Assembly (NCBI GenBank): GCA_043584915.1
Contig: CP121319.1
Location: forward strand, 2,863,228-2,927,227
Direction: 5' to 3'
DNA: 64,000 nucleotides
Source: Fluviicola sp.
GTDB taxonomy: Bacteria > Bacteroidota > Bacteroidia > Flavobacteriales_D > Crocinitomicaceae
The translations under genes were made by a program, and so were the position numbers. The notes beneath the pieces were generated by a model, which did not search any database, was not told the origin of the DNA, and worked only from the letters and a program-made list of their open reading frames with translations. Below, in pieces: positions 26,909-47,100 of the stretch. Each line of letters opens with the position of its first letter. Position 1 is the stretch's first letter.

Positions 26909-27493
26909 TTACAATTGATTTATTGTTTGATCTGTTTCTGTGATAATGCCTCCTTGTGATTGAACATCCTCGCTTTCAATTTGAATTACGCTTACTTTGT
27001 AAACTGCCGACGGTCGCTGTTTTCCACCCAAACTTCCCCAGATATAACTTTGTTCCTCAAAAGTTGGAGTGTACAATTCCACATGAAATTTGAAGTTGTC
27101 AAGCGAACTCAAGGGGTTCATTTCATTGGTGGAATGATTGTATATCGAATTCGATTGCGTGAATACCTTTTTCCCTTGAAAGAACTCTACTATTCCCGAT
27201 AGATCAGCAAGCTCCTCATCATAGGAACCAATTCCACGATTGACAGAGAACAGAATGTAGAGATTCAAGTTAATCACTGGCTGTTTTACTTGGGTGACAT
27301 TTCCGACATTGCGGATATTCTTGAAATTCTTCATGGTGTTTTCTTCACTCATGTTGATGAGTGTAAGAAGAATAGTGTCCTCAATTGCACCGTTGTTAGA
27401 TTCATCAAGTAGCGCAATATTCCCTAAAGTAACCTCCTTGTCGAGGTAGTCTTCTACTTGTAACGCGATTACTTGTAATACTTCAAATAGCAT
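26909..27493 (-). CDS. DUF4255 / Pvc16-Afp16-like tail terminator (cap) protein
   Basis: N-terminus MLFEVLQVIALQVEDYLDK and the ~190-aa size. It is the first gene of the operon, as is common in Bacteroidota eCIS loci. Confidence 0.65.
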   Translation of the reverse strand: MLFEVLQVIALQVEDYLDKEVTLGNIALLDESNNGAIEDTILLTLINMSEENTMKNFKNIRNVGNVTQVKQPVINLNLYILFSVNRGIGSYDEELADLSGIVEFFQGKKVFTQSNSIYNHSTNEMNPLSSLDNFKFHVELYTPTFEEQSYIWGSLGGKQRPSAVYKVSVIQIESEDVQSQGGIITETDQTINQL

Positions 27494-27672
27494 TTTTCAG
27501 TGTATGGTGTTTGTTATTAAACCACCGAAAAAAGCACAAGGAGTCATGGTTGCCGAAGCGACGATTTTAAGTCCAAAATGTTAACTCTATTTCTAGTGGC
27601 AGATCAGTTACAACGATCAGCATCATTGTTTGTCTTGATGTAAAACTATAGTCCTTATTTCGATTTTCCAAC

Positions 27673-27683
27673 CGTATATGTGC
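27673..27683. promoter_or_regulatory. Upstream motif copy 1 (cgtatatgtgc)
   Basis: Core shared with 27695-27705 and 27746-27756. Lies 180 nt upstream of the eCIS operon start. Confidence 0.45.
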
Positions 27684-27689
27684 TTAAAA

Positions 27690-27706
27690 GATTGCGTATA
27701 TGTGCG
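27690..27706. promoter_or_regulatory. Upstream motif copy 2 (gattgcgtatatgtgcg)
   Basis: Perfect 17-mer repeated at 27741-27757 (51-bp spacing). Confidence 0.55.
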
Positions 27707-27740
27707 CATTTTTTCTAAAAAAAAATTAATTCCAAATTAT

Positions 27741-27757
27741 GATTGCGTATATGTGCG
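27741..27757. promoter_or_regulatory. Upstream motif copy 3 (gattgcgtatatgtgcg)
   Basis: Perfect direct repeat of 27690-27706, in the eCIS/comM divergent intergenic region. Confidence 0.55.
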
Positions 27758-27902
27758 TAATCTTTTTGTTAAAATTCACATCGAGTGATTTTCTAGAACA
27801 TCGATCTCAAGTAATATTTTTTTGTAACTTATTATAAGAGCTTGTGGTGAATCACATTTTTTCGATTCGAACAAGTAATTAAATAACCTAACCAATAATT
27901 AC

Positions 27903-31355: not shown

Positions 31356-31717
31356 AGGTACTTGTACCTAATTTCCTAGCATTTGGCTATGAACGGAGTT
31401 GTATCCTGAGTCAAAGCTGAATCTCAGAGAAACGTCAAAACGAAATCGCTGAAAAATAAGTTTCAGTTCCGAAGCGGAATCCCCGGATTGCTTCCGAAGT
31501 GAGGAGGTAAGTTGAATTTTAAAGGTTAGTAAAACAGCGGAGGCGCCTGCCGTTTGGATGATTCATCCACTCGTCCGTTAGTTTTACTTCTTTAAAATTC
31601 AGCGCCGAACGGCTTGAAGCAATCCTTGATTTTTTCATCCTTTTTTATCAAGAAAAAAGGATAAAGAAGACTATTTGGAAATGATTTTGCCGAAAAGTAG
31701 GAAATCGGGTACTTGTA
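31356..31717. mobile_element. MITE-like / highly structured ~340-bp element with an 11-bp flanking direct repeat
   Basis: ggtacttgtac occurs at 31356-31366 and 31707-31717. Terminal inverted repeats aatttccta (31369-31377) and taggaaat (31697-31704). Nested internal inverted repeats: 31484-31493/31615-31624, 31513-31523/31589-31599, 31528-31534/31580-31586. Confidence 0.4.
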
Positions 31718-31919: not shown

Positions 31920-34685
31920 TTAGGCCTTTGATCTTATACCCAACCAAAGTTTCATAAGCAATCCAGCAATGGCAATAATTAAAATCAAAGCAATCCAAAA
32001 GATGAAATTGCTATTCGGTGAACCTTCTATTAAGGTAATCGATGAAGTACTCCCAAGAACGACTGGGGTCGCCCAATTGCGCGGATGTGCACTTTGGTTG
32101 TCCGTGCTTTCGTCGTTCAGGAAATCCAACTTCGCTTGTTGCATTGCCCAGGCAGGGTGCGCATTTGTTTTTAAGTGAAGGTAAAATTGCTCAAAGATTT
32201 GTGCATTTGTTCCATGGTTGGCACGCCATATATTCGTGATCACACAATTGCTGCCAGAAGCGATAAATCCGCGTGCTAAACTCATCACACCTTCACCTGC
32301 AATATATTTTCCATTTCCTGTTTCACAAGCATTTAATACAACAAGGTCTGCTTTGGTCTCCAATTGCAAGAGTTCAGAGGTAAGCAATTTGTTCTCACCA
32401 TTGAAAGCAATCCAGGAGTCCAAAATATTGGCTGTATCCGACCCAGCATGCGTGGAGATATGAACAATTCTATTCTCCTCCAAAGCACGAGAAAATTGCA
32501 ATTTCGAAGCTTCGTTCCCCGTAAAGGAAATACCATTCAATTGTTTGCCCGCAGCACTAACCTCTTGCTCTGACTTAGAAAGGAATGGCAGCTCAGAACT
32601 ATTTTTAAATGCGGGAGCAAATCCAGCGAAAGCGCCAAATGCTTTGTTTTTAGCTTTGGAAAATGCCGTGGCCGTTGTGGGAGCATAGGAAATAACTTTA
32701 GAGCGTACCAAATAGGGCAATTCTTTCCAGTTGGATTTTTCCGCTTTGGATGAAACCAACGCTTCGAGAGGAATTTTACTCAAGAACCCATCAGGCAATA
32801 CAATCCAACGCTTTTTGTTTGATTTTCGCATCGATTGCGGAACCAGTTTGCGATAAAGTACATAAGCGTTTTCGGCATAGGTGCTCGGCGAATCTTCAGA
32901 GTTTCCATGCAATGTACTTCCAACAACAGTGATTGCTTCTTTCAGAGATTGATCCACGCGATGAAGTGCAAATTTTCCGTCTGAAACGCATACCGAATAA
33001 ATGTTGCTTCCAACAAAATAATTGATCAAACTTTCATTTTTCTTTAGCCCTTGCAGTTGGCTGTGCACCTTCTTTTCATCGTATTCATACAAATCAGATT
33101 GCAAGGTTGGATATCGCTTGAATAAAGAAGATCCCAAAATCTGCTTTTCCTGGTCCAGGTTTGCAATGGTTTTCGACAATGCCCGCTCATTTTCCTCATC
33201 CTGTTTCATAATCGCCGCTCGGCGTTCTCTTTCGAATTGGGAAATTTGAACGGCAAGATTTTGGAATTGTAGAAACTCAGGATCGTCCTGGTTTCTCGAA
33301 AACTTGAGAACTTGTAAGGATTGCGAAAGAAGAATCCCCTTTGATTGGTCAATAAACCTATACGCGATTTGTGCCAATGCATCCTCGGGTAACTTCGACT
33401 TTAAATCGAACGTTAATGCAATAGCCTCTTCACCAATAGCATGAATTTCTTCGGCAAAACTCAATTTCGAGTAAGTGTCCTGCTGCTCTTGAATACTAAT
33501 ATTAACCCAATCGAAATACGTTTGATAAGCCTCTAGTGCTGCTTGATGGAAACTGGCAGAATCTTTCAAGGCTTCACATGATCGTGCTTTTCCAATCAAC
33601 GCCTCACCAATGCTTACCTCTGGAGACATTTGCCCTGCTTCTGGATACGAAAGTGCATAATTGTTAGGGAAGGAGAAGCATGCTGCCTGCAAAGCACGAT
33701 GGTAAGTGTTCAAAGCGAGTTGATGATTCTGAGTTGCCGAATAATTATCCGCCAGAGACAAGTACACTTTGGCCACTTTTCTGTGTCGAAATGGATACAT
33801 TTCCAGAACTTCCTGCTCTGCATTCGTGAGTAGGGTGTGCGCACGTGCAAACTGCTTCGTTTGAGTGTACAAATTGCCCAAGGTTGTGTACACACCAATT
33901 TCGTAACGCTTGATTTGATCAAATCGATAATCTGCCGTATTTATGGCATTCCTCGCCCTTTGGAAGGCGGTCAAACTTTGCTCTGAAGCCAAAATGCCTT
34001 CGGAGAATGCTCCGTTTTTAGCATAGGCTTCAGCAAGACTTGAGTAAAGCAACCCCTTGTTATAATAATCGCTTTTACTTTTGACAATTCCCGAAGTGAG
34101 AATGTGTTCGCAAGAGTCCATTAAGCCTTTGTTCATGTAGGCGCGTCCCAAATCATTGATGCCGTTCAATTCAGCGCCAACTTCCTTATTTTCAGCGGCA
34201 ATAGCAATGAATTGTTCCAACATCCGAATGGCTTGCTCGTTTTCTCCAAAACGCGTGTGGATGTTACCCAGTGGTTGATACACATAGCGAGCCACAAGAA
34301 AATTTTCAATTTCTGTTGCGCGAAAACGTTCCAAAGCGAGCAGGTAATTTTCTTTGGCTTTGAGGAAATTTCCATAATGGGCCTCATGCAAGTACGCACG
34401 ATTCACATAAATCCAAGCAAGTTTTTCAATTTCCTGTTTGAGCATTGGCTCGGCAGGCATAAAATTGATACAAGAATCCAAAGTTGCAAGCGCCCGATCA
34501 ATCTCATGGTTATCCCGATATGCCGCACTTCTTGATTTATGGTCGTTGTACCAGGCCATTAAATCTACCTCTGGCGCATCGACTTTTATCGTAGTTCTGT
34601 TTGAACTTACGCCCCAAGGTGCGGTCAAGCTCCAAAGAAAAATGGCAACAAAGCAAAAAAATAGTGGTACGAAAACGTGTTTCAT
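31920..34685 (-). CDS. TPR-repeat CHAT-domain (caspase-like) protease with N-terminal leader and C-terminal TM helix (921 aa)
   Basis: CHAT catalytic His/Cys context (IVHISTHAGSD; DLVVLNACETGNG...GVMSLARGFIASG). The N-terminal half is TPR-like and the C-terminus is hydrophobic (FIFWIALILIIAIAGLLMKLW). Confidence 0.8.
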   Translation of the reverse strand: MKHVFVPLFFCFVAIFLWSLTAPWGVSSNRTTIKVDAPEVDLMAWYNDHKSRSAAYRDNHEIDRALATLDSCINFMPAEPMLKQEIEKLAWIYVNRAYLHEAHYGNFLKAKENYLLALERFRATEIENFLVARYVYQPLGNIHTRFGENEQAIRMLEQFIAIAAENKEVGAELNGINDLGRAYMNKGLMDSCEHILTSGIVKSKSDYYNKGLLYSSLAEAYAKNGAFSEGILASEQSLTAFQRARNAINTADYRFDQIKRYEIGVYTTLGNLYTQTKQFARAHTLLTNAEQEVLEMYPFRHRKVAKVYLSLADNYSATQNHQLALNTYHRALQAACFSFPNNYALSYPEAGQMSPEVSIGEALIGKARSCEALKDSASFHQAALEAYQTYFDWVNISIQEQQDTYSKLSFAEEIHAIGEEAIALTFDLKSKLPEDALAQIAYRFIDQSKGILLSQSLQVLKFSRNQDDPEFLQFQNLAVQISQFERERRAAIMKQDEENERALSKTIANLDQEKQILGSSLFKRYPTLQSDLYEYDEKKVHSQLQGLKKNESLINYFVGSNIYSVCVSDGKFALHRVDQSLKEAITVVGSTLHGNSEDSPSTYAENAYVLYRKLVPQSMRKSNKKRWIVLPDGFLSKIPLEALVSSKAEKSNWKELPYLVRSKVISYAPTTATAFSKAKNKAFGAFAGFAPAFKNSSELPFLSKSEQEVSAAGKQLNGISFTGNEASKLQFSRALEENRIVHISTHAGSDTANILDSWIAFNGENKLLTSELLQLETKADLVVLNACETGNGKYIAGEGVMSLARGFIASGSNCVITNIWRANHGTNAQIFEQFYLHLKTNAHPAWAMQQAKLDFLNDESTDNQSAHPRNWATPVVLGSTSSITLIEGSPNSNFIFWIALILIIAIAGLLMKLWLGIRSKA

Positions 34686-34711
34686 ACCACTAAACTATCA
34701 GTTTTTAGAGA

Positions 34712-36040
34712 TTACTTTTTCTTAATGAGAGAATTTTCTTTCATCGGTTCAGCTATTTGATTGGTCGGCTTTACCGTATAAAAGCCACCGCCAGACGTCA
34801 ATGGGTCCATGCAAATAGTCGTAACTTCATTCGTCTCAATTGGGGCGTTTTCATCGAATACAATTGTCGAATGGCACACCACAGCCGGGCCGAAGCGGTA
34901 ATTGGGTAGCACCTTAACTGTAAATTCAACAGAGGAACGTGTAAGACTGAGGTCTTTACACATGCGGTCTTGAGTTGTTCGTAAAACTAGATCGTTGAAC
35001 TCAAAGGTAAGAATGCGTGTATCATAGTCAATGTCATAAATGGGGCCATTGCCGGGGTTATAGGCATTGTTGATTGGTTTCATTTGAATAGTTGTACCAC
35101 CGTATTCCTTTGGTAATACGATCTCTGAGATGGTCGATAAATTCAGTTTTGGATCCAAATGGCACTTTACCTGAACAAATCGGGTAGTGGTATCTCCCAC
35201 ATTTTGGAAATGCACCTTGTATGTGATCGGTTCCCCTCCAAAATCACATTCAGTTACAGCTTCTGAAGTCTCCTGCATAAAGTTAGGGTCATGCGATTCT
35301 GCCACTGGAATGCTTAATGCACAACGTGTAACGTTATTCATTGGTGGCAATTCATGTTTGTCGATATTCATGGATACGTTAAAAGTAACGACTTCTTGAG
35401 TAGGAGAAATAACGGCAACAGGAACTAGAATAGTACGTTCTTGTCCTGCTCTTAAACCGCTAAAACGCCACCTTTTCGCTTGATCAAATACTTCACCATT
35501 GGGATGAAACTCAGGGTGCAACCCGATATAGTTTGAGGCGAAGCGTGTAGCCGGGTCTGCGGTCAAATCCAAAGAGCCAGTGTAGGCTCCATTTCCGCCG
35601 ATTTGTGGAGGCAAAGCATACGTGATTAACAGAAAAAGGGTGTCATCAGGTACAGCGTTACGGTAATGTTGAATTTTTATGGAGGTTCCAGGATCGAGTA
35701 ATTGTCCGCTGATGGGCGCACCGCTATTTGGCGTAGAAGTAACCACTTTTGGCGGAGGTCCTCCGGTTCCATAATTTTCTGTTGGAGCAGCGAAAACTTC
35801 ATATGATCCCATTCTCGGGAATGTTGTTATCGGGTCTTCTACAAAACTGAATTGATTGTCACCAAACCACCAAAGGTGAGAATAAAACGCTCCTTGTTGA
35901 GAAATGGGCAAGCCTTGAAATTCGTATTTGAATTGTTCAGGATTTCCAACAACCGTTTGAACAATTTGTTGTGCTTGCACCTGAAATAAGCAAATACTAA
36001 AAAAGAGAAGTAGAGACAGGGTGTTTTTGTTTGTTTTCAT
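34712..36040 (-). CDS. Secreted hypothetical protein (442 aa)
   Basis: Signal peptide MKTNKNTLSLLLFFSICLFQVQAQQ. Beta-rich, with no assignable domain. Sits upstream of the CHAT gene in the same orientation. Confidence 0.6.
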   Translation of the reverse strand: MKTNKNTLSLLLFFSICLFQVQAQQIVQTVVGNPEQFKYEFQGLPISQQGAFYSHLWWFGDNQFSFVEDPITTFPRMGSYEVFAAPTENYGTGGPPPKVVTSTPNSGAPISGQLLDPGTSIKIQHYRNAVPDDTLFLLITYALPPQIGGNGAYTGSLDLTADPATRFASNYIGLHPEFHPNGEVFDQAKRWRFSGLRAGQERTILVPVAVISPTQEVVTFNVSMNIDKHELPPMNNVTRCALSIPVAESHDPNFMQETSEAVTECDFGGEPITYKVHFQNVGDTTTRFVQVKCHLDPKLNLSTISEIVLPKEYGGTTIQMKPINNAYNPGNGPIYDIDYDTRILTFEFNDLVLRTTQDRMCKDLSLTRSSVEFTVKVLPNYRFGPAVVCHSTIVFDENAPIETNEVTTICMDPLTSGGGFYTVKPTNQIAEPMKENSLIKKK

Positions 36041-36253
36041 CAGTGTACGTTTTTATGGTTGGTACCAGCTTCGAAAATAATCTAACCGGCAAAAGCGTAA
36101 AAAAACAAATTTCTTTCATCTAGATCCTTATTTAATGGAAGTTCTACTTTTGTACAAGACACATTCAAAATAAACCAACTGTTATTTACACGATCCTATA
36201 GCGATGAAGAAATTATTGCAACCCTCAATTCAGCAAGTAGGGGTGAGAATCAT

Positions 36254-36778
36254 GTGATTCAATTTTTACTCGATAAAAATCGGGGTAAAATTACTTCGTA
36301 TGTGCTAAAAAATAGCGGTGGGAAAGACGATGCCGAAGCAGTTTTGGTGGAAGGCGTAACCCATTTAATTTTGAATGTAAGGAAAGGTCAGTTCAAGGGG
36401 GGAAGTACGCTGGGAACCTATCTTTTTTCCATTTGTAGGGGCGTTTGGTTGAAAACTTTACGGAAGGAAAAACGCTACGCAGACCTTGAAGAAGATACAT
36501 CAACGGCGATGGATAATAACTCGCCGCTGCAACATTTCTCAGAATCGGAGTTGCAAAAGGAAGTTGGCTTTTTACTAGGGAAAATTGGAGCGGCGTGCCA
36601 GGAAGTTTTGAGATTATGGGCACAACATTATTCCATGTCGGAAATTGCCGCGCAAATGGAGTATAAGAATGCTCAGATTTCCATGAATAAGAAGAACAAA
36701 TGTTTGGGGAAATTGAAAGAAATCGTTCGAGAAAACCAAAAATATAGAGAGCAATTGCAAAGTTTTTTACTTAATTGA
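36254..36778 (+). CDS. ECF-type sigma-70 family sigma factor (start may lie upstream)
   Basis: Region 2-like segment (DAEAVLVEGVTHLILNV...TYLFSICRGVWLKTLRKE) and a region 4 HTH (MSEIAAQMEYKNAQISMNKKNKCLGKLKE). The frame stays open upstream of the GTG used in the track. Confidence 0.75.
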   Translation: MIQFLLDKNRGKITSYVLKNSGGKDDAEAVLVEGVTHLILNVRKGQFKGGSTLGTYLFSICRGVWLKTLRKEKRYADLEEDTSTAMDNNSPLQHFSESELQKEVGFLLGKIGAACQEVLRLWAQHYSMSEIAAQMEYKNAQISMNKKNKCLGKLKEIVRENQKYREQLQSFLLN

Positions 36779-36782
36779 AACA

Positions 36783-37499
36783 GTGGAAGATCGCACGCAA
36801 CATATCGATGATTATCTCAACAAGCGCTTATTGGAAGAAGATGCAGCGAAGTTTGAGCGGGATTTAGAAGCAGATCCAAATTTGCGCGATGAGCTAGCAT
36901 TGCAGCAAAAAGTTCAACTGTTATTAGAAGAAAACGAGCGGTTGGAATTAAAAAGTCAAGTAGCGAAGATCGCTCAAAATCAAATCAAATCTGGAGCGTC
37001 GAAGTCCATGATTCTGAAAATCGCGGCTGTCATCCTTTTGCTTTTAATTCCGACTTATTTCTATGTGTCCAATCAGTATTCGGATGCCAGTTTGTACGCT
37101 GCTTATGAAGAAACCTATGAAGATCGATTGACGACAATGAGTGCTTCCGATGACCTTCAAGAGGCCATGCACGCTTACAATACCGAGAAATACAAGAAAG
37201 CTGCCATCTTACTCCGTGAAATACGCATCGAAAATGCGGAAGAACGTGCGGTCATTTATGAGGCGGTCGCTTACCGCAAGTCGAATCAGTCGCAAAAATC
37301 GATTCAATTATTGAACAAATACATCCCTAAATCACAGTTCAAGGAAACTTTGCAATGGGAACTCATTCTAAATTATTTGGCGTTAGAACAGGGCGATGAA
37401 GCGCAGAAAACACTTCAAGAGTTCCTCAAGAACAATTCAGGTTACAAGCAGGAACAAGCAGAGGCACTGTTGCAAGATCTTCAGAGTTTTTGGAGGTGA
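36783..37499 (+). CDS. Putative anti-sigma factor (single TM, TPR-like C-terminal domain)
   Basis: Starts 4 nt after the sigma factor stop. Has a short cytoplasmic N-domain, a TM helix (MILKIAAVILLLLIPTYFYV) and a helical-repeat C-terminus. Confidence 0.6.
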   Translation: MEDRTQHIDDYLNKRLLEEDAAKFERDLEADPNLRDELALQQKVQLLLEENERLELKSQVAKIAQNQIKSGASKSMILKIAAVILLLLIPTYFYVSNQYSDASLYAAYEETYEDRLTTMSASDDLQEAMHAYNTEKYKKAAILLREIRIENAEERAVIYEAVAYRKSNQSQKSIQLLNKYIPKSQFKETLQWELILNYLALEQGDEAQKTLQEFLKNNSGYKQEQAEALLQDLQSFWR

Positions 37500-37536
37500 T
37501 CCATTAACCTTTTTAAGTATAAATACTTAGCGTCAT

Positions 37537-37549
37537 GCGCACATATGCG
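37537..37549. promoter_or_regulatory. Upstream motif (gcgcacatatgcg) shared with the eCIS upstream region
   Basis: Its reverse complement cgcatatgtgcgc matches cgtatatgtgcgc (27695-27707) at 12/13 positions. Relative to the direction of transcription it has the same orientation as the eCIS copies. Lies 71 nt before the ATG at 37620. Confidence 0.5.
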
Positions 37550-37619
37550 TGAATTGTTGATTTGGCTTTTTTTAACCGAATAAAGACGTATATTTAAGAC
37601 TCTAGTCACTAAAATTACA

Positions 37620-38912
37620 ATGGTACGTCAAATCATCACAGATTTAGAATGGTTGCGCATGACCTTAATCGAGGTTATGACGGCATACGTTGAGCAACAA
37701 GATCAATACCAGGGAATCACATTACAAGCTCCGAAATTAAGTTCCGATAAAAACGATGCCTATGCACTGTTTCTCAATGAAAATGACCTTACTGATCAAG
37801 ATCGCTTTTTATTATGTGTTTCTCTAAGTCGTTATTTGGGTGATTTCTGGAAAATGCTCTTTTTGGAGAAAAATCCCTTTGGAATTCATGTTGAGAACGA
37901 ATTCGCTTATCCGACATTTACAACGGTTGTAGCAATTCTGGCTGGAAATGATTTGGGAAAACGCTTAGAAGTACTGGAAGTATTAAAATCTGATGCCGTG
38001 CTTTTTAGCAAGCAAGTGGTTGACATTGATCAAAAGGAACCCGGACAAGATATGATGGCGTGCCGTTTGAAGGTACATGCCAATTGGCGAGAACTATTTC
38101 TTTGGAATCGACACGAGCTGCCACGATATAGCATGGAATTTCCAGCAGAGCAACTCACCACCGATTTGGACTGGGAAGAGTTAATCTTAGAGCCTTTTCC
38201 GATGTCAAAACTCGAAGAGATCAGTGATTGGATGGAGAATCGTGACGAATTGGCGAATGTTGTGAATGGTTCAGGGCACTTAAAACCAGGGTATCGCTGT
38301 TTGTTTTACGGACCATCTGGAACGGGGAAGTCACTTGCAGCGGCACTTTTAGGGAAACGATTTGGGATTCCAGTCTTTCGTATTGATCTCAGTAATTTGG
38401 TCAGTAAATACGTTGGGGAAACCTCTAAAAACCTAAAGCGAATTTTTGATTTAGCGGAAGATAAAAACTGGATTCTTTTCTTCGATGAGGGAGATGCCAT
38501 CTTTGGAAAACGTGTCGATACGAGTCAAACAGACAACAAAACAGCAAGTTATGCCAATCAGGATATTGCTTTCTTATTGCAGCGCATTGAACGTTTTAAT
38601 GGTTTGGTTCTTGTAGCCACCAACATGCGTAAGAACATGGATGCGGCATTTTCACGTCGATTTGAGAACATCATTCACTTCAACATTCCTACACCTGAAA
38701 AGGCCATGGAAATTTGGGGCGAGTATTTGCCGAAGCATATTCAAATTAACAACGAAGCACAGATACAACGATTAATTGCGGAGAATCGATTGTCGTTGGC
38801 TTCACTCTACAATGTCATGCACCGTTTGACATTGATGAGCATCTCCAAAAAACAAAACGAATTCAAACTGGCCGACATCACGAAATTGATGGGCGAAGAA
38901 AAAATGAAATGA
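37620..38912 (+). CDS. Intact AAA+ ATPase, paralog of the eCIS Afp15-like ATPase (430 aa)
   Basis: Walker A (FYGPSGTGKS), Walker B (ILFFDEGDAIFGKR), LVLVATN and SRRF. Its N-domain is collinear with that of the broken gene at 8174-9069. Confidence 0.85.
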   Translation: MVRQIITDLEWLRMTLIEVMTAYVEQQDQYQGITLQAPKLSSDKNDAYALFLNENDLTDQDRFLLCVSLSRYLGDFWKMLFLEKNPFGIHVENEFAYPTFTTVVAILAGNDLGKRLEVLEVLKSDAVLFSKQVVDIDQKEPGQDMMACRLKVHANWRELFLWNRHELPRYSMEFPAEQLTTDLDWEELILEPFPMSKLEEISDWMENRDELANVVNGSGHLKPGYRCLFYGPSGTGKSLAAALLGKRFGIPVFRIDLSNLVSKYVGETSKNLKRIFDLAEDKNWILFFDEGDAIFGKRVDTSQTDNKTASYANQDIAFLLQRIERFNGLVLVATNMRKNMDAAFSRRFENIIHFNIPTPEKAMEIWGEYLPKHIQINNEAQIQRLIAENRLSLASLYNVMHRLTLMSISKKQNEFKLADITKLMGEEKMK

Positions 38913-39892
38913 GAAACTGGTTTTTACATATTGTTTTTGGAGTGTTGGCATTGCAGTTGCAGGCACAATGCTCCTGCGATAGCTTGGTTGCTGCTATTAA
39001 AGCGGAAGATACCATTGCTGTGAAGGAGTGTTTGGAAAGTGGTACTAATCCCAATTGTTGGGTGCTTCGCTATGAAAATGAACATGAGGAATTTTTTGGT
39101 AAGGGAGAAGATTATGTTTGGGAATGGATGGATCGCCCCATGGCATTTGCAATTCGAAAAAATAACATTGCGCTTGTCAAGCAACTGCACAAAGAAGGAG
39201 CCTCAGTGAACACTGGAAGTGTCCGTTTGCTCGACACGCTTGGAACACCAAGGTTTATGCTATATCGGGTACCCTTAATGCTTGCTGATAGTATCATCAA
39301 ACTTGAGGAAGATAGTACAGTTTATAATTATCTGGTTGCGCACGGTGCTGTTTCGCACAGAACTCAGTTTAGGAGGGGGGAAATGATTGAAAAATTATTT
39401 TTCTCGGATGTAGTAAGCGAACCCTATTATATGAACTCATTGGATTCACTTAAAAGCTTCAATAAATTACTTCTGGAATACGGGGATGCCATTATTTTCC
39501 CTCAAGAACCAACAGTATTAGCAGCTGCATTTAGTAGCAATGTTCCATCCTTACAAAAATGGATTTTGGCAAATAGAGATTACCGATTATTGCAAGGTAA
39601 GTCCCTCTACCGATTGAATCAAACTTTCGATGTATGGAAACTTGCCTTATATGGAGAATATTTATCGGCGCGTTCTATTTCCTTTTATAAGTTGCATTTT
39701 GGTTTAACCGAGGAATCGATTGAAAGGGATATGTCAATAATTAAAAGCAGACACGAATATGTGTACGAGTACCTGCAATTGGAGAAGGAACTACAAGACC
39801 CCAATGTCCGAAAACGAGAAAAGAAGGAGAATAAGCTGTACCGAATTGGACTGGTAATAAGTATGGAAAATGATTTCCCCGATCGATTATAA
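38909..39892 (+). CDS. Ankyrin-repeat paralog 1 (327 aa), N-terminal leader
   Basis: ATGA overlap with the ATPase stop. Leader plus QCSCDSLVAAIKAEDTIAVKECLESGTNPNC (ANK-like), and a basic tail. Confidence 0.75.
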   Translation: MRNWFLHIVFGVLALQLQAQCSCDSLVAAIKAEDTIAVKECLESGTNPNCWVLRYENEHEEFFGKGEDYVWEWMDRPMAFAIRKNNIALVKQLHKEGASVNTGSVRLLDTLGTPRFMLYRVPLMLADSIIKLEEDSTVYNYLVAHGAVSHRTQFRRGEMIEKLFFSDVVSEPYYMNSLDSLKSFNKLLLEYGDAIIFPQEPTVLAAAFSSNVPSLQKWILANRDYRLLQGKSLYRLNQTFDVWKLALYGEYLSARSISFYKLHFGLTEESIERDMSIIKSRHEYVYEYLQLEKELQDPNVRKREKKENKLYRIGLVISMENDFPDRL

Positions 39893-39900
39893 TTGAAGAA

Positions 39901-40959
39901 ATGAATCATGTAGTTTTCAGTATAGCATTTTTAGTATTTACGTTTCAATTGAATGCGCAATGTTCGTGCGACAGCTTGGTAGCTGCCATTGAAGTGGGAG
40001 ATTCTGCTACTGTGCGCAATTGTTTGGATTCAGGAACAGATCCCAATTGTACGATGAGTGAATTTCGGGAAGACTCCACCAATACCTTCGACGAAAATCA
40101 AAATGTAATTACAGTTGCCGTAACCTATCATTGGCGCATAACACCTTTAACAACTGCTCTTCACGAAGATAATTTGGACATAGTGCAATTGCTTCTGGAT
40201 GCAGGAGCCTCACCCAATACACCCGAAGTTTGCCTGGAGGAAGTGAATTATGGCGAAACAATAAACCTTCGTCTTACTCCACTTAAGATAGCGAAGAACA
40301 TGACCCAAGCGGATGAAGTCACAGCTCTCTTACTTGCCAATGGCGCTCTTACGGAAGAGGAATTAGAGGCAAGAGGGTTTCGTATTCAACTTTTGTCTAG
40401 TTATTACGATGATGACTATTTCCCTTGTAAAGATTCTATAACGAAATTACATGAATTGATTGAAACCTGGAGTCTTGAAATGATTATAGAAGATGAAATT
40501 CTTACGGAAAGAGCATTGGCAAATAACGATATGATTTTATTCGATTTTTTAGTTAATCAATATTCTGTTTCCTTGGACCGAAGGGCAAGCGGATATGTAA
40601 CCGTCGGAATGGGTATGTTCAAGCGAACAATATACAAAGAAGGCTACTCTCCCATCGGTTCGGTCTATTTCGGAGATAAAATGACTATTGAGATGATTGA
40701 TCTCCTTAAAAGTAACGGTGGTTTCGCAAAAGGAGAATTTGAAAAATATATTCTTAGAAAATCTGGTAATGACAATTGGGATGATAAAAAAGTACGCAAA
40801 TATTATCTTCTTGAACAAAAGCTAGAAGCTGATAAAGAGTTGAGCGAAAAAAAGAAACTGAAATACGAAAAAAAAATGCAAAAACTTTATGATCAGTTAG
40901 AAGCAAAGAATGGAATTAAAGCACGATTAGAAAATGATTTTAGCGAGGGGTGTCGCTAG
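39901..40959 (+). CDS. Ankyrin-repeat paralog 2 (352 aa)
   Basis: CSCDSLVAAIEVGDSATVRNCLDSGTDPNC and TPLTTALHEDNLDIVQLLLDAGASPNT (ANK consensus). The N-terminal half is nearly identical to paralog 3. Confidence 0.8.
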   Translation: MNHVVFSIAFLVFTFQLNAQCSCDSLVAAIEVGDSATVRNCLDSGTDPNCTMSEFREDSTNTFDENQNVITVAVTYHWRITPLTTALHEDNLDIVQLLLDAGASPNTPEVCLEEVNYGETINLRLTPLKIAKNMTQADEVTALLLANGALTEEELEARGFRIQLLSSYYDDDYFPCKDSITKLHELIETWSLEMIIEDEILTERALANNDMILFDFLVNQYSVSLDRRASGYVTVGMGMFKRTIYKEGYSPIGSVYFGDKMTIEMIDLLKSNGGFAKGEFEKYILRKSGNDNWDDKKVRKYYLLEQKLEADKELSEKKKLKYEKKMQKLYDQLEAKNGIKARLENDFSEGCR

Positions 40960-40972
40960 ATAAATTCATATT

Positions 40973-42025
40973 ATGAAATACAGCATCATCATATTTTTTG
41001 TCGGATTCTGCGCTTTTTGGGGAGTCTCTCAATGTTCGTGCGATAGCTTGGTGGCTGCCATTGAAGTGGGAGATTCTGCTACTGTGCGCAGTTGTTTGGA
41101 TTCAGGTACAGATCCCAATTGTAAGACGAGTGAATTTCGGGAAGACTCCACCAATACCTTCGACGAAAATCAAAATGTAATTACAGTTGCCGTAACCTAT
41201 CATTGGCGCATAACACCTTTAACAACTGCTCTTCACGAAGATAATTTTGGCATAGTGCAATTGCTTCTGGATGCAGGAGCCTCAACCAATACGCCCGAAG
41301 TTTGCTTGGAGGAAGTGAATTATGGCGAAACAATTAACCTTCGTCTTACTCCACTTAAGATAGCGAAGAACATGGCCCAAGCAGATGAAGTCACAGCTCT
41401 CTTACTTGCCAATGGCGCTCTTACGGAGAGAGAGTTAGAGAGAAGGGGAGATAGGATGGCAAAATTATCCATGTGCTATGATAATGGATCATTTCCTTGC
41501 AGAGATTCTATATTGAAATTGCACGAACTAATAGACTTATGGCAAGGTATGGTCTATTTGGATGAAGAATTTATGATTAGTCATGCGCTTAGAAGTAATG
41601 ATATTCTCCTTTTGAGGTACTTAGTTGATGTTCATCATGTTTCTTTAAAAGAGCGTCCAGAGAGATACGTGACTGTTGGGATGGGAATGTTCCGACGGAC
41701 GTTAAAAGAAGAAAGGTTTGCTCCGTTTGGGTCGTTGGTCGCCGGTAATAAATTAACAGTCTCATCAATACTCTATTTAGAAACTCAAAGGAGCATTACT
41801 GATGAACAGATTTACAATACTTTCCTTCAATACAGAAGCAAATATAAAGACAGGCGTAAAGTTGCCAAATACTTTAAGATGGAGAGAAAATACAAGGATG
41901 TTGATATGAAGTCTTCCAAGAAGGAAAGAGTAAAGAAAAAAATGCAAAAACTTTATCATCAGTTAGAAGCAAAGAATGGAATTAAAGCACGATTAGAAAA
42001 TGATTTTAGCGAGGGATGTCGCTAG
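40973..42025 (+). CDS. Ankyrin-repeat paralog 3 (350 aa)
   Basis: Same ANK module as paralog 2, the same leader as paralog 4, and the same tail as paralog 2 (KMQKLY.QLEAKNGIKARLENDFSEGCR). Confidence 0.8.
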   Translation: MKYSIIIFFVGFCAFWGVSQCSCDSLVAAIEVGDSATVRSCLDSGTDPNCKTSEFREDSTNTFDENQNVITVAVTYHWRITPLTTALHEDNFGIVQLLLDAGASTNTPEVCLEEVNYGETINLRLTPLKIAKNMAQADEVTALLLANGALTERELERRGDRMAKLSMCYDNGSFPCRDSILKLHELIDLWQGMVYLDEEFMISHALRSNDILLLRYLVDVHHVSLKERPERYVTVGMGMFRRTLKEERFAPFGSLVAGNKLTVSSILYLETQRSITDEQIYNTFLQYRSKYKDRRKVAKYFKMERKYKDVDMKSSKKERVKKKMQKLYHQLEAKNGIKARLENDFSEGCR

Positions 42026-42038
42026 ATAAATTCACATT

Positions 42039-43100
42039 ATGAAATACAGCATCATCATATTTTTTGTCGGATTCTGCGCTTTTTGGGGAGTCTCTCAATG
42101 CTCCTGCGATAGCTTGGTGGCTGCTATTAAAGCAGAAGACTCTGCTACTGTGCGCAGTTGTTTGGAGAGTGGTACTGATCCCAATTGTGAGGTCATTGAT
42201 TTGGCTTATCAAGACCAAAAAATTATGCGCGATGATACTTCGATGGATACCATTCAACTCATTCTGAAATGGCAAAAGCGCCCCATTGTATTCGCTTTAA
42301 CAAAGGATCCAAACCTGTTGCGTATACTATTGGATGCAGGTGCTTCTCCCAATACGGGATCTTATTGCTACCGAGAATTGCACTTTGACGAGTACCGACA
42401 ATATGAACTTCCACCAATGGAATTGATCGATTCTGCATCCCACCCAAATGCATTTAGAATGTTGATAAAGTATGGCGGTTTGACAGAAAAGCAATTGAAA
42501 GCCAGAGGAAGACGTATCGTAAAGTTGAGTACGTATTACAAGGGGTGGGGCGCTTGCTCTGATTCCATTCAGTTAATGCATAGACTTTTAGAAGTCTATG
42601 GAGAGTCTGTTCTTTTCAAGTCCAATAGAAATTTTCTTGATAGAATGATCTACAATAATGATATTGTGACGACAAATTATCTTCTGACTGTAAAGGAGGT
42701 AACTTTGAAAGAAGATAATGGAGATTACTTCTCGAGCGGAGCTATTTTACCAAGAGGAGTCGAAATCCCCGACTTTTCTCCTGTAGGTGCGATCATATCG
42801 AGTGATTATTTGACAATCTCTACCTTACTCTTGCTTTTAAAGCATAGCCCTGAACATTTTGAACAGCCACTAAAAGATAATATTGCTTATCGAGAGTTTA
42901 CGCGAAGAAAGGCAACAAAGCAAGCGCAAAAATATTTCACCATGTTTTTCGAAATCGAGGAGAACAAATCACTTTCAAAAAAGGAAATACAACGCATGGA
43001 AAAACGCATGCAACGCATTTACAACAAATTAGAAAAGAAAAATAGCATAGAAGCGCGCCTACAAAGCAAAGCAATGGATTGCGAACGAAGCAGGCGCTAA
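42039..43100 (+). CDS. Ankyrin-repeat paralog 4 (353 aa)
   Basis: Leader identical to paralog 3. Residues ~24-170 and the tail (FTMFFEIEENKSLSKKEIQRMEKRMQRIYNKLEKKNSIEAR) are nearly identical to paralog 5. Confidence 0.8.
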   Translation: MKYSIIIFFVGFCAFWGVSQCSCDSLVAAIKAEDSATVRSCLESGTDPNCEVIDLAYQDQKIMRDDTSMDTIQLILKWQKRPIVFALTKDPNLLRILLDAGASPNTGSYCYRELHFDEYRQYELPPMELIDSASHPNAFRMLIKYGGLTEKQLKARGRRIVKLSTYYKGWGACSDSIQLMHRLLEVYGESVLFKSNRNFLDRMIYNNDIVTTNYLLTVKEVTLKEDNGDYFSSGAILPRGVEIPDFSPVGAIISSDYLTISTLLLLLKHSPEHFEQPLKDNIAYREFTRRKATKQAQKYFTMFFEIEENKSLSKKEIQRMEKRMQRIYNKLEKKNSIEARLQSKAMDCERSRR

Positions 43101-43110
43101 CAGAAAAACA

Positions 43111-44178
43111 ATGAACAGTTTAAAACAGATTTATTTAGTGGCTCTTTTTATGGGAGTATTCACGCAAGTGCAAGCAAAATGCTCCTGCGATAGCTTGGTT
43201 GCTGCTATTAAAGCAGAAGACTCTGCTACTGTGCGCAATTGTTTGGATTCAGGAACAGATCCCAATTGTGAGGTCATTGAATTGGCTTATCAAGACCAAA
43301 AAATTATGCGCGATGATACTTCGATGGATACCATTCAACTCATTCTGAAATGGCAAAAGCGCCCCATTGTATTCGCTTTAACAAAGGATCCAAACCTGTT
43401 GCGTATACTATTGGATGCAGGTGCTTCTCCCAATACGGGATCTTATTGCTACCGAGAATTGCACTTTGACGAGTACCGACAATATGAACTTCCACCAATG
43501 GAATTGATCGATTCTGCATCCCACCCAAATGCATATAGAATGTTGATAAAGTATGGCGGTTTGACAGAAAAGCAATTGAAAGCTAGGGGAAGACGAATAG
43601 GGAAATTAAGCACCTATTATACAGGGTATGGAGCATGTGCAGATTCGATTCTCTTGTTGCATGCATTTTTGGATAAATATCAAGGAGAATTTATTCATAG
43701 ATCGAATAGGGTTTTAATCAAAAGAGCTTTGTTTCGAAACGATATTGTTTTTATTGAACAATTACTAAAGGTTAAAAATATCAGTCTCAAAGAAGAAGAA
43801 GGTAAGTACTTCTCCAGTGGAGCTATTCTACCGAGAGGGTATCAGGAGTTGGATTATTCTCCAATAAGCTCAATTACGGCAAGCGATTTTGTTACAATTT
43901 CTACGATTCTTTTAATGTTAGAATATCAGCCGGAAGTTATGGTTGATGCGATTAAAGAAGAAATTGTGGACGATCCTTATGGTAAGGGAAACTTCAAAAA
44001 AGTTAAAAAGTATTTCACCATGTTTTTCGAAATCGAGGAGAACAAATCACTTTCAAAAAAGGAAATACAACGCATGGAAAAACGCATGCAACGCATTTAC
44101 AACAAATTAGAAAAGAAAAATAGCATTGAAGCCCGAATGAATAGCAAAGCAATGGATTGCGAACGGAGTAGGCGCTAA
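43111..44178 (+). CDS. Ankyrin-repeat paralog 5 (355 aa)
   Basis: As for paralog 4. The central ~130 aa diverge. Confidence 0.8.
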   Translation: MNSLKQIYLVALFMGVFTQVQAKCSCDSLVAAIKAEDSATVRNCLDSGTDPNCEVIELAYQDQKIMRDDTSMDTIQLILKWQKRPIVFALTKDPNLLRILLDAGASPNTGSYCYRELHFDEYRQYELPPMELIDSASHPNAYRMLIKYGGLTEKQLKARGRRIGKLSTYYTGYGACADSILLLHAFLDKYQGEFIHRSNRVLIKRALFRNDIVFIEQLLKVKNISLKEEEGKYFSSGAILPRGYQELDYSPISSITASDFVTISTILLMLEYQPEVMVDAIKEEIVDDPYGKGNFKKVKKYFTMFFEIEENKSLSKKEIQRMEKRMQRIYNKLEKKNSIEARMNSKAMDCERSRR

Positions 44179-44196
44179 CGTACTAAAAACAATATT

Positions 44197-47100
44197 ATGA
44201 CCACTTTTCAAAAACTGCAATTGCGGACAGTTAGTGCTGCCAATGCCTCAACATCTATCAAACCTCTTTCTTTGAACGAATTGGTAAATTCACTGAGGTC
44301 AATGGCGCCGGGCGTTATGGAGAATTCTTTTGATACAGACCCAAGGGAGTTAACTGCGGATGAATTTGCAAGCTATGAGCAAAAGGTTGCTCACGTTCTT
44401 GAGTTAATGAATGGAATAAAGCCAAAAAACAAATATAAGTTTACTCAGGATAAAAAACGGTTTCAAAAACAAAGGAAGCGAGTTCTTGCTGCATTTGAGG
44501 TGCTCCAGAATATGAGCTTTAAAGAGCAAGACCATTTTGCTTCACATTACACAGAAGTTTTTGACGATGTCATTGGCAGTTTAGTATTAGAGGATTATCA
44601 AAAGTTCGATGCGGGCTTAATCCCAGGGGTTACTTATGAATTACTGGTCAATGGAGAAAGAAACCCATTATTGGTAATTCTGGATACGCCAAAATATTAC
44701 GCGGAGGATGTGGAAGTCATTGAAATGGCTTTATTGCTTTGTTCTCTCGTACAAGTCGAGGAGTCTGATACTACAACAGAAGGAACTAAGAAGAAAGCGT
44801 TCCAAGAAGCCGTTAAGGGAATTTTAAACAATCATAATCGTACTGAAGGACTAACGAAAGTAATCGAAGAGGAGGTGCCTGAAACAGATTACAAACTGTT
44901 TATCTGGCAAATGTTAAAACTGTTAAAGAATGCACGAGATTCAGGAGGCAATGTAAATACCAGAGCAATAACGGCGGGAATGAAATTTATTGGAAGAGGA
45001 GGTTTTTCCAAAGAATTGATTCTAGAACATATATCACTTGCCGATTTTCAAAGAAATAAAAGTGATGGTGGGCATGTATACGGGCTTCAGTTTGATGATA
45101 GTGATGTGAGCATCTATGCCGATTTAAAGGACGGGTATAAGGACCATGCGAAAGAGAATGGTTTAGAGAATGAAAGTGGAATAGATGGGGCATTCATTCG
45201 TGTAAAGGGTGAAAGTATTCCCATCTTAGGCATGGATTATATAACAAGTAATATGAGTGCCCATTTTGATGCTGGAGCATTCACGAAGGTCGAATTAGTG
45301 ATGACCTGGGATACCAAAAAAACCAGTGATGATGTGGGGGGGCGGAAGGAGCCTATTCAAGCCAATATTGATTTGAACAATGCAAATTTAACCTTAGATA
45401 ATGTTCTGTATCGTTCCCGATTTTTATCTAAAAAGCGCAAGGAAGATGGAACGTTAATAGAAAATGAGATGACCGAAGAACAGTATTCTGTTCTTATGGG
45501 AAACATTACTATTGAGAACCTCTCGATGAAAAACCTAACCATAACGGATGAATTAAGAAAATTTAAAAACAACTCAGAAGTTATTTATCGGTTAACAGAA
45601 GGAATTCAAGACCAACTGTACTTGTTAATCGATGTTATTTTGTCCATGGTTTCCCAAACCTCCCTTACACCAATGGACATCAAAGATTTTGAAAGTTTCA
45701 ATAACTCTGCCAAACGAACCATTCTTGGAGCAGATGGAGTAGAGTTGAAAATAGGGAAAGGAATGATCCGCAATTTTGTCGACTCTGAAGGAAAGGTTTT
45801 GGGCAATGTCCCATTGGATGGATTGACCATAAAACTGAACAGCCAGAAAGCCGAAGCGGAAGATTTCGATGTTGAACTTTGGAAGCAACAACAAGAACTC
45901 AAAGCACTCGAAGAAGATTTGGCGGAATTGTATAAAAAGAAAGCACGCTTTATTAAGAACCATGAAGGCGATTTTATCAGTAAATCAAAATATATAAACG
46001 AGTTTGATGAAACGAGAAAAAAGAGTACAATTGGAAAGTTGATAGGTGAAATTGACTCCTTGAATAATGAAATTTCGGAAAAAATCAACTCTCCAATTAC
46101 CTACACACTTTCCAGTAATGATCCCCTTGGTTTTTCTCGCGCATTTTACATCGATGAAATGCTTCGCAAAACCTTTCAGGAAAAATTAGGTCTATTTGGT
46201 TTGTACGACATTCAGGGGCTCAATGAATTTACTCTAACGCAAGGCATCGAAATGAATGGTTCTATTGGGTTGGATCGAATTTCTGATACAGTTCTTAAAA
46301 TCGATGAAATTGCCGTTCCTAAATTGTTTGATAGTGCCGTACACATGGATTTAGGCGCTTTACGAATTAATGGTAACGATGTTAATCTGTCTAATTTAAA
46401 AGGAGCGATTAGTCTAAAATGGTCGGAAGTTGCTCCCACAGGTAGAGGTGAGGTGAAATCTGAACTCCGTCCAATAAAAATCGCTTTAACGGGTGGGGAT
46501 ATGACGGTAAAAGACCTTGAATTGGTAGATACCACCAATAAAAAACCATCCTTTAAAATAGGAGGAATGGTCACCTTGGAGAATACACAAATGATCTTTC
46601 ACAGTGTGGGCGATTTTGAAGGTGAAAACAATTACAAAGACATTGAATTTAGCTGTACATCTATTGTTCTCGACAATGTTGCTCAATATCAACATGCCTT
46701 AAAGGATAATCCTGAAATAGAGAATTGGTTTGTTGCCCAAGATGGAGGTACGATCAGACTGTCAGGAATCAATGTCCGCAATAAAAAATCCAACGCTTTA
46801 GGTATTAATGCTGCAGGAAATAGTGTGACTTCGCAGGAGCTTGAAGTAAAAGCAACTTCTGGGGCCTTCGATAATTTATTAGTTGATGGGTTTTCCATTA
46901 ATTCGAACATCACAAAATTAAGAGCTGTAATTACAAATGAAACGGAAACGACTCCAGATAATCAGGTGATTCGATCAACAATGAAAACAGAACTGTATTT
47001 TGGTTTAAGTGAATTGTTTGTGCCAGACTTAACACGCGAAATGGAAGGAATTAGTCTTTCACATATACCATATGATTCCGACGATATTAAGAAAAAAATC

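Follow-up and report, generated by a model that had tools for sequence, protein, structure and literature searches.

Can two operons that lie about 10 kb apart be switched by one regulator recognising the same short DNA element? The question is raised by a 64,000-nucleotide stretch of the genome of Fluviicola sp., a marine Bacteroidota bacterium (contig CP121319.1, positions 2,863,228 to 2,927,227; hereafter the window), with a G+C content of ~40% and its nearest relatives among the Crocinitomicaceae (Flavobacteriales). In this window a repeated motif stands upstream of an operon for an extracellular contractile injection system (eCIS), which starts at 27493 on the minus strand, and again upstream of an ATPase operon on the plus strand. 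An earlier note on this DNA had proposed that one regulator or sigma factor controls both loci, and had pointed to a sigma factor of the extracytoplasmic function (ECF) type encoded beside the second one. On the evidence presented below, we consider it probable that the motif forms a tandem operator for a dimeric transcription factor at both promoters, a factor that would be encoded outside the window.

We, first, re-checked the motif copies, whose sequences and coordinates had been reported accurately. Three exact copies of CGTATATGTGC are present on the plus strand between the eCIS operon and the divergent comM gene (from 27903), at 27673-27683, 27695-27705 and 27746-27756. The gattgcgtatatgtgcg 17-mers are at 27690-27706 and 27741-27757, and GCGCACATATGCG is at 37537-37549, 71 nt ahead of the ATG at 37620 that opens the ATPase operon. 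When up to one mismatch is allowed, CGTATATGTGC occurs 4 times in the 64 kb compared to 0.44 expected, the one-mismatch copy being 37539-37549, and none of 100 dinucleotide-preserving shuffles attained four matches.

Orthologous loci (designated here by L numbers) were then gathered via homologues of the sigma factor, of the ATPase and of Pvc16, and the regions upstream of the eCIS operons were aligned across lineages. A metagenome scan with an alignment of the ATPase gave only relatives of at most 47% identity (best segment), which served for synteny and not for footprinting; no match was obtained when viral_contigs were searched with the ATPase, nor when metagenome_contigs were searched with Pvc16. 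The comparison of orthologous loci, which the earlier note had suggested as a check, showed that two eCIS-side sites, A and B, are kept as a pair in ten lineages. The conserved motif is thus real, although the conserved unit is not the 13-17-mer first described, but a 10-bp dyad, GYAYWWRTRC. In 28 sites, G1, A3 and T8 are invariant, as are the pyrimidine at position 2 and the purine at position 9 (28/28 each), and C10 is found in 27. The conserved positions are mirror-symmetric (G1/C10, A3/T8, Y2/R9), which is consistent with a dimeric binding protein. The conserved orientation that had been remarked on is present but of little weight, the site being nearly palindromic and, on the ATPase side of L001, a perfect palindrome.

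Site A (27674-27683, minus strand) is the promoter-proximal dyad, followed by two bases and TTG, and site B (27696-27705, minus strand) is the distal dyad of the conserved pair, 22 bp from A. The third eCIS-side dyad, site C (27747-27756, minus strand; GCACATATAC in the eCIS direction), is lineage-specific: an A/B-like sequence is found there only in the window and in its closest relative, L001, and the corresponding position in L003, L091 and L092 reads CACA(C/T)A(T/A)GTGTG. All three eCIS-side copies that had been reported therefore exist, but only A and B are ancestral. For a position weight matrix (PWM), the training set was limited to sites A and B from six other genomes, the window sites being excluded. 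Among 63,991 positions of the window, its four highest-scoring matches were A, B, C and D, where D is the dyad within GCGCACATATGCG ahead of the ATPase gene, and a further site at this second promoter, D', ranked eighth. Another PWM match, at 50260, lies inside the coding sequence of p257, a lipoprotein-like gene product, and is conserved with L001 only; it was treated as chance or coding conservation and not as an operator.

The position of the pair relative to the predicted eCIS promoter is conserved too. Read in the eCIS direction, the ten lineages, in which Pvc16 identity ranges from 53 to 95%, have a common layout composed of dyad B, a 12-nt spacer (usually nnAATCTTTTnn), dyad A, two bases, TTG, 20 nt, TAGTTTTAC, a leader of ~145 nt and the ATG. 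These blocks persist over this range of identity while the surrounding intergenic DNA has diverged; TAGTTTTAC is nearly invariant across lineages, and the order dyad, 2 nt, TTG, N20, TAGTTTTA is fixed in most eCIS promoters. In the window, TAGTTTTA at 27641-27648 (minus strand) is the predicted sigma-A -7 box, and TTG at 27669-27671 (minus strand) the predicted -33 element. The flavobacterial sigma-A promoter carries TAnnTTTG at -12 to -5 (PMC9723704), so the place of TAGTTTTA predicts a transcription start near 27636. Such a start would put TTG at -35 to -33 and the centres of sites A, B and C at about -42.5, -64.5 and -115.5, respectively. The TTG was found 20 nt upstream of the -7 box in five of the seven lineages in the scan and was recognised by eye, with a variant -7 box, in L091, L174, L175 and L176.

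Two further conserved blocks were observed in this intergenic region. The spacer AATCTTTT between B and A is near-invariant at eCIS promoters and absent from the ATPase and lodA promoters, and the block TTGTTAAAATTCAC (GTGAATTTTAACA in the eCIS direction; window 27766-27779), just past site C, is conserved in most lineages.

The same tandem arrangement is present at the ATPase promoter. Site D (GCACATATGC, 37539-37548, plus strand), the core of the 13-mer at 37537-37549, is the proximal dyad of this promoter. The near-copy reported at the second locus is thus genuine, but it had been taken for a single site, and a partner, D' (GTATAAATAC, 37517-37526, plus strand), lies 22 bp upstream, at exactly the spacing that separates A (27674) from B (27696). 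With this partner the ATPase promoter shares the tandem layout of the eCIS promoter. In the same way, the ATPase gene is preceded by a 22-bp pair in L001 (GTAGAAATAC and GCACATGTGC) and in L084 (GTATAAGTAC and GTATTAATAC), the latter being a distinct lineage with an ATPase 71% and a Pvc16 63% identical to those of the window.

In another reading, the copies might be small hairpins at the RNA level, acting as an intrinsic terminator of the sigma/anti-sigma genes at D or as attenuators in the comM leader at B and C. A terminator scan does flag B (27693-27708), C (27741-27762) and D (37533-37552) as a stem-loop with a T-run, 2-3 matches compared to 0.3 expected, with window folding energies of -7.0, -9.5 and -7.1 kcal/mol, respectively. 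However, the orthologous sites are mostly unstable, with 0 to -2 kcal/mol at L001_B, L084_A/B, L092_A/B, L175_A/B and at all A sites except that of L003, and neither the T-runs nor the flanking complementarity are conserved. Conservation concerns the identity of the bases at G1, A3, T8 and C10 and not their pairing, C2 being frequently combined with A9. Moreover, nothing requires termination at B and C, which have a divergent gene start on either side. As most orthologous sites do not fold stably, the terminator reading was rejected, and we regard a role as RNA hairpins as very improbable. A search of Rfam gave no match at the gathering score, only a spurious miRNA match with E = 0.37.

The distribution of the pairs was then examined in the 2.04 Mb of fetched DNA. 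Pairs of PWM matches occur 17 times at a spacing of 22 bp, compared to 0-5 times at any other spacing between 11 and 40 bp. In ~0.45 Mb of non-redundant Crocinitomicaceae DNA, the 13 pairs are distributed over nine eCIS promoters, three ATPase-operon promoters (window, L001 and L084) and one lodA/lodB promoter, and no tandem pair is found outside these three kinds of promoter. L176, the Pvc16 of which is 53% identical and which was outside the training set, has its sole pair at the eCIS promoter.

These numbers bear on the possibility that the motif has no specific regulatory role and represents a repeat dispersed in the genome or a site of recombination, be it an element of the repetitive extragenic palindrome or miniature inverted-repeat transposable element (MITE) kind, a DNA uptake sequence or an inverton arm. 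Single 10-mers scoring at least 11 bits are indeed encountered in related DNA roughly every 20 kb, so that a single match is uninformative alone, and the strong matches at 31358 and 31709 are part of an 18-nt direct repeat round a structured 341-nt element. Nevertheless, the frequency of single sites is, by our estimate, about that expected from base composition, the 22-bp pairs are, in the Crocinitomicaceae DNA scanned, restricted to the three kinds of promoter, and the position of the sites relative to the -33 and -7 elements is fixed in ten lineages. An inverton was rejected because A, B and C are direct and not inverted repeats, and no recombinase gene is present among the window annotations. 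A dispersed repeat is therefore, in our judgement, just as improbable as the hairpins. The matches at 31358 and 31709 were likewise discarded as independent operators, being the arms of the direct repeat GGTACTTGTACYYAATTT.

The single pair outside the eCIS and ATPase promoters is found in L014 (3739-3770), ahead of a lodA/lodB-like operon (L-lysine epsilon-oxidase). The eCIS promoters and this lodA promoter are alike in that the proximal dyad is followed, after 25 nt, by TAG(T/A)TTT(A/G), in L014 a perfect TAGATTTG -7 box. This pair suggests that the putative regulon takes in an antimicrobial enzyme that produces H2O2. In L003, a decayed pair (TTACATGTAC, N11, TCAGATGTAC) is present ahead of a GMC oxidoreductase gene.

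The gene products, too, connect the two operons. Homologues of the ATPase encoded at 37620-38912 (plus strand), which has an AAA domain, lie beside CIS_TMP, eCIS_core, Pvc16 or sheath genes in 60 of 89 loci, in the slot that corresponds to the canonical Afp14-Afp15-Afp16 position. From its domain and the neighbourhoods of its homologues, the product is identified as the Afp15/Pvc15-type AAA+ ATPase of the eCIS, encoded apart from the main operon. The IetA/IteA identity proposed by PADLOC and NCBIfam was discarded since those matches span the AAA core only and are far under the NCBIfam cut-off. The main operon retains a remnant of its own Afp15-type ATPase past the tape-measure gene, in the usual Afp15 slot (8174-9069, minus strand). 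It consists of two overlapping open reading frames (ORFs), for the N-domain (8488-9069) and the C-terminal lid (8174-8500), which align to residues 1-134 and 329-405 (29% identity for the lid), respectively, of the 37620 ATPase; the Walker A/B core is missing. The main operon has thus lost a working ATPase, the intact one being encoded 10 kb away together with likely cargo. The putative cargo genes (38909-50079, plus strand), which are predicted to be co-transcribed with the ATPase gene as the gaps between genes are at most 18 nt, encode a 327-aa protein, four paralogues of ~350 aa, two of them with ankyrin repeats, and a 1960-aa protein. L001 and L084 share the gene order ATPase, 330-336-aa protein, ~1930-aa protein. 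Since the ATPase is of the Afp15 type and the in-operon copy is gutted, the eCIS and ATPase operons are functionally linked, a link that we count, like the motif, its dyad symmetry, its fixed spacing, its conservation and its restriction to these promoters in the DNA scanned, among the direct observations. The shared cis-element and the connection between the two operons proposed in the earlier note are therefore retained, but not the sigma factor as their regulator, as discussed below.

We propose that a dimeric factor binds both dyads on one face of the helix, given that two 10-bp dyads with centres 22 bp apart, i.e. about two helical turns, would present themselves on the same side of the DNA. 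As the same tandem unit stands at both promoters, one regulator could switch the machine together with the module encoding its loading ATPase and payload. What we infer is that a protein binds there, where transcription starts, whether control is positive or negative, and which kind of regulator is involved.

As for the sign of control, activation is slightly favoured over repression, because at the eCIS and lodA promoters the predicted positions of the dyads, -42.5 and -64.5, precede the -33 element and correspond to the class II and class I geometry of activators. The sites might instead be real operators of a repressor, of the kind found in CI-like or PrtR-like tailocin switches, that holds both operons off until a signal arrives. 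Cooperatively bound tandem dyads are typical of phage-type repressors, and eCIS systems descend from phage tails. In addition, taking TTGATTTG (37557-37564) as the -7 box ahead of the ATPase gene would centre the dyads there at about -25.5 and -47.5, so that they overlap the core promoter. However, at the best-defined promoters, namely those of the eCIS in ten lineages and of lodA in L014, the sites lie wholly upstream of the -33 element. The Bacteroidota SOS boxes, GGA-N5-TCC and CTAA-N5-TTAG (PMC8565304), are unlike the motif, GYA-N4-TRC, so that a non-canonical LexA/SOS box was rejected as well. Altogether a repressor appears to us a less likely, although serious, alternative.

Several observations weigh against a tandem operator common to both promoters. 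The canonical TTG-N19-21-TAnnTTTG was sought at the ATPase promoter and not found. The best -7-like boxes there follow the proximal dyad at 8 nt or at 40-41 nt, compared to 25 nt at the eCIS promoter: the nearer box, T(T/C)nRTTT(G/C), would place the dyads at -25.5 and -47.5, and the farther, TAnnTTT-like one at -57.5 and -79.5. This difference in geometry may reflect another mode of action at the ATPase promoter or a wrong promoter call. No pair is present at the distant ATPase orthologues L173, L086 and L088 (47-58% identity), and the lodA case concerns one locus only. Finally, no classical transcription-factor gene besides the ECF sigma factor is found in the 64-kb window, and searches of Pfam, NCBIfam, PHROGs and PADLOC with all of its unannotated ORFs returned no DNA-binding protein.

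Which protein, then, might recognise the dyads? The ECF sigma gene (36254-36778, plus strand) adjacent to site D is the nearest candidate, and the motif would in that case be a promoter element from which this sigma factor drives both operons after release from its anti-sigma. The sigma/anti-sigma pair, which ends at 37499, closes 38 nt before site D, the tandem pair of L014 is also beside such a sigma cassette, and the DdvS-DdvA system provides a precedent in Myxococcus, in which an ECF sigma and a TPR-CHAT protein can control neighbouring defence loci (PMC11506125). The anatomy of the sites, however, is not ECF-like. The motif consists of symmetric 10-mers 22 bp apart and not of an asymmetric bipartite -35/-10 element; at neither promoter is there an AAC-type -35 combined with a CGT-type -10, the latter being the hallmark of ECF promoters in flavobacteria (PMC9723704), at the ECF spacing of ~16-17 nt. 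A good sigma-A -33/-7 pair is, moreover, present downstream of the sites at the eCIS promoter. Ahead of the sigma gene itself there is no motif, and the sequence there shares only AT-rich 7-9-mers with the two promoters.

Additionally, cassette and motif each occur without the other. The cassette is found in ~20 loci, most of them without an eCIS gene within 10 kb, and the non-eCIS cassette loci (L004-L013 and more distant ones) do not contain the motif, with the exception of the lodA pair in L014. Conversely, tblastn detected no sigma cassette within 10 kb in L084, L090-L092, L174 and L175, all of which have tandem sites, and none is listed among the genes of L176, for which tblastn was not used. 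The proposal of the earlier note that the adjacent sigma factor is the controller is consequently unsupported, and we rate it as improbable. The place of the sigma gene beside site D is best explained by the variable interval between comM and a conserved ABC-transporter cluster, which is near empty in L090 and carries differing inserts in L092, L084, L003 and the window.

The dimeric factor that we favour is possibly a LuxR/GerE-type protein. In L174, L176 and L014, genes with a GerE domain are at most 10 kb away from the tandem sites. The GerE response regulator of L174 was considered as the cognate factor and not retained, as its homologues are near only 3 of 11 motif loci, which is statistically weak and provides a lead only. 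In surveys of eCIS loci GerE is the commonest associated regulator, and neighbouring GerE, BTAD or RfaH-like genes are listed there with no DNA target (PMC8213781).

The proposed operator resembles several known systems in part. In Pseudomonas aeruginosa, a short upstream motif, the P box of the PrtN-PrtR system, marks the separate R-, F- and S-type pyocin operons. P boxes have the form of direct repeats and are recognised by the activator PrtN, with a RecA-cleavable repressor above it. The likeness lies in a repeated upstream motif on separate operons for a phage-tail-derived weapon and its accessories, with one regulator; unlike P boxes, the sites described here are 10-bp dyads 22 bp apart in a Bacteroidota host, and no PrtN/PrtR homologue was seen. 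The lux and tra boxes of LuxR/GerE-type activators are centred near -42.5 or -65, and are thus likewise palindromic sites at class II and class I positions; they are, however, 18-20 bp long and usually single, and the window contains no GerE gene. In the lysogeny switch of lambda, the 17-bp CI operators OR1 and OR2 are 23-24 bp apart, and a CI dimer centred near -42 can serve as activator of one promoter, others being repressed. These are also adjacent dyads about two turns apart, bound cooperatively in lambda, but no repressor gene, divergent lytic promoter or prophage is present here. A further comparison is with AnfA1, an RfaH-like protein which, according to work cited in PMC8213781, acts by antitermination on the Serratia Afp operon. 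AnfA1 is similar in being a dedicated regulator of a long eCIS operon, and the structured 143-nt leader described below could be a target for elongation control of a comparable kind. It differs in acting on the transcript or elongation complex and not on upstream dyads, and no RfaH/NusG-like gene was seen in the window.

As the trigger of eCIS production is largely obscure, an operator with critical bases at G1, A3, T8 and C10 and a 22-bp spacing could help to isolate the regulator, serve in reporter constructs and point to further members of the regulon, e.g. remote cargo operons. The shared promoter code would also assign the detached ATPase/cargo module to its eCIS, an aid to effector discovery where the payload is remote. 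A dedicated master regulator of a Crocinitomicaceae 'antagonism regulon', which would comprise the eCIS, the ATPase with its ankyrin and giant cargo, and LodA-type H2O2-generating oxidases, is a more tentative extension, to which we give somewhat less than even weight. Its operator would be, within the literature searched, the first cis-regulatory code for a Bacteroidota eCIS, and a direct handle on the signal that triggers particle production. Otherwise, the arrangement would follow ordinary bacterial regulon logic without a new principle.

The eCIS structural operon (3905-27493, minus strand), to which small ORFs add down to ~742, encodes, according to Pfam, a Pvc16_N cap, sheath, gp19-type and CIS tube proteins, VgrG, PAAR, gp25, baseplate J, a CIS tape-measure protein and a DUF4157 eCIS_core protein. 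Its conserved leader of ~143 nt (27494-27636, minus strand) contains two hairpins (27611-27628 and 27548-27563) and an invariant CCACTAGAAATAG block. Helix 1 (27611-27628) shows compensatory changes in 6 of 6 pairs, with a covariation score of 0.374 compared to 0.216 for shuffles. Through this leader, elongation or antitermination in the 27-kb operon may be controlled.

Past comM, the window contains a Kiwa pair (KwaB, KwaA), a TPR-CHAT protein, a DUF7619 protein, the ECF-type sigma factor, the putative anti-sigma and the ATPase operon. The Kiwa anti-phage pair (29607-31164, minus strand), between comM and the CHAT gene, is found in this genome only, and in almost every relative the insert between comM and the ABC transporter differs. 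In L091, comM is truncated by an island with integrases and a recombinase. In the window, the segment 31357-31725 harbours the 341-nt element mentioned above, which is non-coding, has terminal inverted repeats and an RNA folding z of -6.8, and is without a match in Rfam or a second copy among the fetched loci; it resembles a MITE or a structured non-coding RNA and is separate from the operator motif.

The four-gene sigma cassette (31920-37499), with the CHAT-TPR and DUF7619 genes on one strand and the sigma and anti-sigma genes on the other, recurs across Bacteroidota (Crocinitomicaceae, Saprospiraceae, Cyclobacteriaceae and others; L004-L022 among the loci), and PADLOC has no model for it. 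It is like a split version of Myxococcus xanthus DdvS-DdvA: there the anti-sigma is fused to TPR-CHAT and the system controls a defence island and neighbouring loci, and here sigma, anti-sigma and TPR-CHAT are separate proteins (PMC11506125). Such fused anti-sigmas are reported only in Myxococcota and one Comamonas species (PMC11506125). Unlike what the DdvS-DdvA idea would imply, the motif does not travel with the cassette and is not ECF-promoter-like. Ahead of its first ATG/GTG/TTG (36104-36253, plus strand), the sigma reading frame continues without a stop for 25 codons or more, with a conserved sequence (FTRSYSDEEII...), and homologues are ~198 aa long compared to annotated forms of 158-174 aa. 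These annotated forms probably lack the true N-terminus, the likely start being CTG at 36179 or ATA at 36170. The divergent DUF7619/sigma intergenic region contains a conserved inverted repeat, GGTTATGTT...AACATAACC, which is placed ~200 nt before the sigma gene in L005-L010 and reads ATCTAACC at ~36060-36095 in the window; it is a candidate control element of the cassette itself.

A last observation concerns the habitat of the eCIS. The Pvc16 proteins P0159/P0165, 95% identical, are recorded in an MMETSP marine-eukaryote transcriptome, from which it would follow that a close relative of this bacterium inhabits a culture of a protist or alga, where its eCIS is transcribed.

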